This document shows positions 1 through 235 of a stretch of DNA of 235 nucleotides, one piece after another. The position numbers and the translations under genes were made by a program. The notes under the pieces were generated by a model, which worked only from the letters and a program-made list of their open reading frames with translations, did no database searches and was not told the DNA's origin. The stretch is from Escherichia coli (GTDB lineage Bacteria; Pseudomonadota; Gammaproteobacteria; Enterobacterales; Enterobacteriaceae), in the NCBI RefSeq assembly GCF_003334815.1, contig NZ_QOWO01000139.1; one strand, written 5' to 3'. Within the stretch, counting starts at the first letter, position 1. Each line of letters opens with the position of its first letter.

Positions 1-90
1 AAGCGATACCGCTCTTACAGAGGAGAGGTAGGGCAAACCGCCCCTAATGTTCTCCAAAGAGATTTCAAGGCTACGCGCTGAGAGATCCCC

Positions 91-235
91 TCATAATTTC
101 CCCAAAGCGTAACCATGTGTGAATAAATTTTGAGCTAGTAGGGTTGCAGCCACGAGTAAGTCTTCCCTTGTTATTGTGTAGCCAGAATGCCGCAAAACTT
201 CCATGCCTAAGCGAACTGTTGAGAGTACGTTTCGA
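91..235 (-). CDS. Hypothetical protein, C-terminal fragment (partial ORF entering from right window edge; unverified)
   Basis: Minus-strand frame with codons at + positions 234..94 contains no stop for 47 codons and ends at TGA (reverse complement of tca at 91-93). Translation read from the sequence: RNVLSTVRLGMEVLRHSGYTITREDLLVAATLLAQNLFTHGYALGKL*. Composition is protein-like (Leu/Ala/Thr/Val-rich, no Trp/Cys). The only in-frame ATG in the window (+ 204..202) has no properly spaced Shine-Dalgarno motif, so a real gene would start upstream of the window. Against: an open run of 47 codons has roughly 10% chance per frame in random sequence, and a second minus frame (235..74, stop TAG at 73..71) is also open across this span. 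No family was recognised. Confidence 0.2.
   Translation of the reverse strand, partial: RNVLSTVRLGMEVLRHSGYTITREDLLVAATLLAQNLFTHGYALGKL

Follow-up and report, generated by a model that had tools for sequence, protein, structure and literature searches.

IS10 and IS150, the elements to which the DNA described here belongs, are both textbook insertion sequences, nested insertions of such elements are commonplace, and nothing in the arrangement reported below is novel. IS10 is delimited by an outside and an inside end, with the transposase stop codon located upstream of the inside end, and is subject to regulation by RNA-OUT (PMC5006887); in addition, Dam methylation controls transposase expression (PMC5006887). 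In the literature on the features of the inside end, only this general architecture and the Dam regulation were confirmed, and no evidence for a 3' terminator was found. Two types of RNA hairpin have to be kept in mind when a stem-loop is encountered at such a place. A Rho-independent terminator contains a GC-rich stem of at least about 5 bp, closed by a short loop and followed by a U-tract, that is, at least five U within the 8 nt directly 3' of the stem, and the stimulator of -1 frameshifting in the IS3 family, to which IS150 belongs, is a stem-loop or pseudoknot located a few nucleotides 3' of the slippery heptamer.

In the 235-nucleotide stretch of Escherichia coli DNA analyzed here (hereinafter, the window), a reading of the sequence alone had identified a short GC-rich hairpin in the putative downstream region of a minus-strand open reading frame. 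The features of the window are collected in the table.

Features of the 235-nt window, with positions in the window and, where given, in the surrounding locus (L001)
Feature	Position	Strand	Basis or remark
IS150 (IS3 family) orfB coding sequence, frame 1, cut at 77 by IS10	1..77	+	Annotation, translation, IS150 matches
Predicted outer helix GGAGAG (22-27) / UUCUCC (50-55), enclosing the hairpin in the MFE structure	22..55		Prediction only; not conserved
Hairpin GGGC-AAACC-GCCC, codons GGG CAA ACC GCC C(CT), Gly-Gln-Thr-Ala-Pro of IS150 OrfB	31..43		
Left copy of the 9-bp target-site duplication from IS10, GGCTACGCG	69..77 (L001 4069-4077)		Identical 9-mer abuts the other IS10 end, L001 5407-5415
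IS10 inside-end terminal inverted repeat, CTGAGAGATCCCCTCATAATTTC	78..100		Repeated, inverted and imperfectly, at the other terminus, ...AAATCATTAGGGGATTCATCAG; start at 78 common to three independent copies
GATC (Dam) site in the IS10 inside-end terminal repeat	84..87		Seen in sequence
IS10/ISVsa5 transposase, last 47 codons and stop (91-93)	91..235	-	Annotated CDS L001 4091-5299 (-), WP_001339197.1; gene runs past the window end at 235

An IS10 copy nested within IS150

A megablast search of 5,426 complete E. coli genomes detected the full window in exactly one of them, that of strain STK78-E (NZ_CP162185.1, 4047021-4047255). The right-hand part of the window, roughly three quarters of it, has 10,727 matching places in these genomes, annotated as IS4-like ISVsa5 (IS10) transposase, and the STK78-E genome itself contains 23 places that match the IS10 part. 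The left-hand part, positions 1-77, has its counterparts in annotated IS150 copies, which were detected in 2,835 of the 5,426 genomes; among 3,397 records, there are 2,878 in which the best match reaches 99% identity or more. The annotation of STK78-E includes an IS150-family transposase pseudogene on the plus strand that ends at window position 78, the IS10/ISVsa5 transposase gene on the minus strand from position 91 and, beyond IS10, the remainder of the IS3-family transposase. The IS10 copy occupies positions 4078-5406 of the locus (1,329 bp), with the duplication flanking both of its ends, and when this copy is taken out together with one copy of the duplication, an IS150 element of 1,443 bp emerges that extends from TGTACTG (L001 3154) to CAGTACA (ending at L001 5934). 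Thus, the window is a nested insertion of IS10/ISVsa5 within orfB of IS150, with a 9-bp duplication of GGCTACGCG, and, given the target duplication and the uniqueness of the junction, the adjacency of the two elements is accidental.

Both parts show the attributes of the respective elements. The IS10 copy has the termini CTGAGAGATCCCC... and ...GGGGATTCATCAG, the expected length, the 9-bp duplication and an IS4-family DDE transposase of 402 amino acids that matches the NCBIfam model NF033591 (IS4 family transposase) with an E-value of 4.1e-121. Its inside end, positions 78-235 of the window, shares with IS10/ISVsa5 the terminal repeat, the GATC site, the C-terminus ...HGYALGKL and the 9-bp duplication, and no difference was detected, so that this is a standard IS10 copy with the hairpin located outside it; the element ends at position 78, 13 nt beyond the stop codon of the transposase. 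We take the GATC for the site by which the inside end of IS10 is known to be methylation-sensitive; its regulatory role was reportedly described by Roberts and colleagues in 1985. The IS150 part of the window is 100% identical to many annotated copies in E. coli, the element has the expected 1,443 bp, its orfA/orfB frameshift heptamer A AAA AAG is found at L001 3683-3689, and OrfB matches the IS3-family transposase model NF033516 (transpos_IS3) with an E-value of 1.8e-104. The present copy differs in being split by IS10 and is therefore inactive.

An IS10 end located further to the left was considered and rejected. Among the top IS10 matches listed, there are alignments that reach back to window positions 51-64, that is, 14-27 nt past the end of IS10, and the overextending matches lie in unrelated genes, including those for an MFS transporter and smg, and at a plasmid site. 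The three such matches that were inspected, with alignments starting at positions 58-64 (L010, L011 and L012), are in three different genes; IS10 begins at the same base, position 78, in all of them, and their flanks, which are equal to window positions 62-77 at 9-12 of the 16 positions, are unrelated. These extensions look like the best of thousands of flanks combined with the target preference of IS10, and not like a longer element.

Two short open reading frames, of 33 and 21 amino acids (15-116, minus strand, and 47-112, plus strand), cross the IS150/IS10 junction. These are chimeric reading frames made by the insertion, and no evidence that either is a gene was found. In the wider neighborhood, the IS150 copy (L001 3154-6160 region) lies between nhaA and mokC/hokC, and its right end precedes the start of mokC, as annotated, by about 74 bp. 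An IS421-family (IS4-like) element (L001 6354-7466) follows between mokC and dnaJ, which puts insertion sequences on both sides of the hokC toxin locus. An IS150 copy is also found beside hokA in UMNK88 (L002).

The hairpin as part of the orfB coding sequence

The pairing described in the sequence-only reading is sound: GGGC (31-34) pairs with GCCC (40-43), via G31-C43, G32-C42, G33-C41 and C34-G40, around the 5-nt loop AAACC (35-39), and RNAfold recovers the stem for either strand. A wobble between G(44) and U(30) adds, as had been proposed, a fifth pair on the minus-strand RNA, and the plus-strand RNA has 4 bp; the respective 17-nt pieces fold with energies of -8.4 and -6.8 kcal/mol, and the hairpin is present in the minimum free energy (MFE) structure of positions 1-90 on either strand. 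The quoted downstream sequences, cuaauguucucc on the plus-strand RNA and uaccucuccucug on the minus-strand RNA, are also correct, and so is the distance of 48 nt between the minus-strand stop codon (91-93) and the hairpin edge at position 43. The position of the hairpin downstream of the minus-strand frame stands, but to frame it in this way is misleading because it lies past the end of IS10, in another element, which the letters by themselves, lacking database context, could not have revealed.

Within that other element, the hairpin opens with the first base of codon 105 of orfB, and the pentapeptide G-Q-T-A-P that it encodes belongs to a conserved linker of OrfB ahead of the catalytic DDE (rve) domain. 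It follows from the genetic code that two of the four pairs, G31-C43 (the first bases of the Gly and Pro codons) and C34-G40 (the first bases of the Gln and Ala codons), are fixed by the amino acids, and that G32-C42 and G33-C41 each rest on a single synonymous third position (in GCC and GGG, respectively). With two pairs dictated by the protein sequence and two that depend on synonymous positions, the stem is a by-product of the coding of a conserved peptide.

Nor is the hairpin more than chance gives. Dinucleotide shuffles of the window contain, on average, 0.15 all-GC stems of 4 bp with a loop of 3-8 nt, with at least one in 12.75% of the shuffles, and in the real 8,235-bp locus the same pattern is found 17 times, or about 0.49 times per 235 bp. 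The folding of positions 1-90, which had been suggested as a check, gave a result that differs between the strands when compared with dinucleotide shuffles: the minus strand is indistinguishable from the controls (z -0.13, with 86 of 200 shuffles at least as stable), and the plus strand is more stable (z -2.25). For the 17-nt and 35-nt pieces, z is between -1.7 and -2.0 against dinucleotide shuffles. A search of the window against Rfam yielded no matches, even at E-values up to 10.

Candidate functions in RNA and in DNA

Given its location, the hairpin could, in principle, be a weak intrinsic terminator or a 3' stabilizing stem of the IS10 transposase mRNA (RNA-IN) reading out through the inside end. 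It does resemble a Rho-independent terminator in being a short GC-rich stem-loop downstream of a stop codon, and the 5-bp stem is part of the MFE structure of the minus strand. However, both strands are devoid of a U-tract, the plus-strand RNA continuing with cuaauguu and the minus-strand RNA with uaccucuc directly 3' of the stem; the stem has only 4-5 bp, the fifth being present on the minus-strand RNA if the terminal G-U pair is counted; and a terminator/promoter consensus scan, along the lines of a check called for in the sequence-only reading, returned no sites on either strand. Together with the unremarkable fold of the minus strand, with energies near those of the shuffled controls, these results bear out the earlier assessment of a stem-loop that is weak at best and does not qualify as a canonical intrinsic terminator. 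Moreover, unlike a terminator, the hairpin is embedded in the coding sequence of another gene, within a different mobile element where it is coding on the plus strand, so that no evolutionary tie connects it to the minus-strand frame. There is also no steady association with the 3' end of a transcription unit: the hairpin DNA was reached by a single insertion, the junction is found in one genome among 5,426, and other copies of IS10 have unrelated flanks, which means that IS10 carries no such element and could not have evolved this hairpin as a 3' signal. We therefore reject the terminator interpretation, which appears extremely unlikely.

A second possibility is that the hairpin, together with the outer helix, forms a functional local structure in the orfAB mRNA of IS150, the effect of which might be to slow ribosomes or to alter mRNA decay, for instance. 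Along with the stability of the plus-strand fold of positions 1-90, this is favored by a comparison with permutations of synonymous codons, in which the region of the hairpin is nominally more stable than its recodings (z about -1.9 to -2.0, p about 0.03), a fraction of 0.03-0.036 of the recodings being at least as stable and 1.3% of them keeping four Watson-Crick pairs at the hairpin position. However, part of the z of -2.25 comes from a predicted plus-strand helix, 61-66/82-87 (GAUUUC/GAGAUC), that joins IS150 sequence to the IS10 terminus and, spanning the junction, exists only through the insertion, and when the hairpin is folded within 160 nt of intact IS150, z is -0.55. Furthermore, when the whole of orfB was scanned against the synonymous null, 4 of the 53 windows were as extreme as the hairpin region, two of these being more extreme. 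The stability against synonymous recodings was not accepted as a signal, given that the region had been chosen post hoc for its hairpin and that the value fails a gene-wide correction. The two more extreme windows, 60 nt each and unrelated to the hairpin, are nt 616-675 and 781-840 of orfB (L002 1534-1593 and 1699-1758), with z of -2.70 and -2.66, respectively, relative to synonymous recodings; the latter is located toward the 3' terminus of orfB, not far from where IS150 ends on the right.

Evolutionary conservation of the stem was assessed by comparing the same 22 codons in eight elements, namely, IS150, a 98% identical IS150 variant, ISKpn8 (94%) and five diverged relatives, which included three enterobacterial IS3-family elements (67-73% identical), an element from Pseudomonas veronii and the Bacillus cereus element ISBce15. 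IS150, its variant and ISKpn8 all retain the stem, a point in favor of a structural role, but with identities of 94% and above, these three copies differ too little to be informative. By contrast, at least one of the four hairpin pairs is lost in each of the five diverged relatives, and no compensatory change was detected at any of these pairs in the alignment of the eight elements. For the relatives, the paired fraction and the covariation score were no better than those of shuffled or slid controls, and the same holds for the outer helix, in which 66.7% of the cells are paired. With no covariance-model match in Rfam, no compensated pairing and the stem broken in all five diverged relatives, a conserved mRNA structure in the relatives of IS150 is rejected, and a functional structure of the orfAB mRNA seems very unlikely. 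Conceivably, positions 22-55 could be a lineage-specific structured patch in the orfB mRNA of IS150 and ISKpn8 that might modestly tune translation of the transposase or stability of the mRNA; this proposal, which draws on a stability over synonymous recodings that is only nominal (z about -2), we regard as highly improbable.

The known recoding signal of IS150 points in the same direction. Like the -1 frameshift stimulator of the IS3 family, the hairpin would be an RNA stem-loop within the IS150 transcript, but the stimulator is located directly 3' of the heptamer, whereas the hairpin, a much weaker structure that lacks conservation, lies 342 nt downstream of that heptamer. The hairpin is thus not placed within a few nucleotides of the heptamer, and a role as the frameshift stimulator of IS150 was rejected on the grounds of position.

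Finally, the inverted repeat might act in DNA, by helping IS10 to choose its target or as a palindrome bound by a protein. The consensus of the IS10 target preference is NGCTNAGCN. The repeat is located 26-38 bp from the IS10 insertion site, and the target GGCTACGCG fits the preference in part only, both being points in favor of such a role; however, with arms of 4 bp and a spacer of 5 nt, the repeat is too short for extrusion, and it occurs at chance frequency, three other IS10 insertion sites have no such repeat at that distance, and a single insertion event presents no recurrence to be explained. A role at the level of DNA is, accordingly, barely conceivable.

Origin of the hairpin

The hairpin is, with a probability that we put at about 0.93, an incidental self-complementarity in orfB of IS150 that came to adjoin the end of the IS10 transposase gene by way of a single IS10 insertion. 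IS10 inserted into the IS150 copy at GGCTACGCG in the lineage of E. coli STK78-E, which brought the hairpin near the 3' end of the transposase gene, and a transcript crossing it would form, at most, a marginal stem of 4-5 bp. The chance frequency of such stems, the ordinary folding energies and the lack of conservation suggest that the hairpin has no terminator, regulatory or structural function.

The outcome is negative but clarifying: what looks like a 3' hairpin of the IS10 transposase gene belongs to the coding sequence of another element. Junctions between mobile elements can yield pseudo-signals, among them hairpins, helices and short open reading frames of chimeric origin, that resemble features of gene ends when short windows are viewed out of context.
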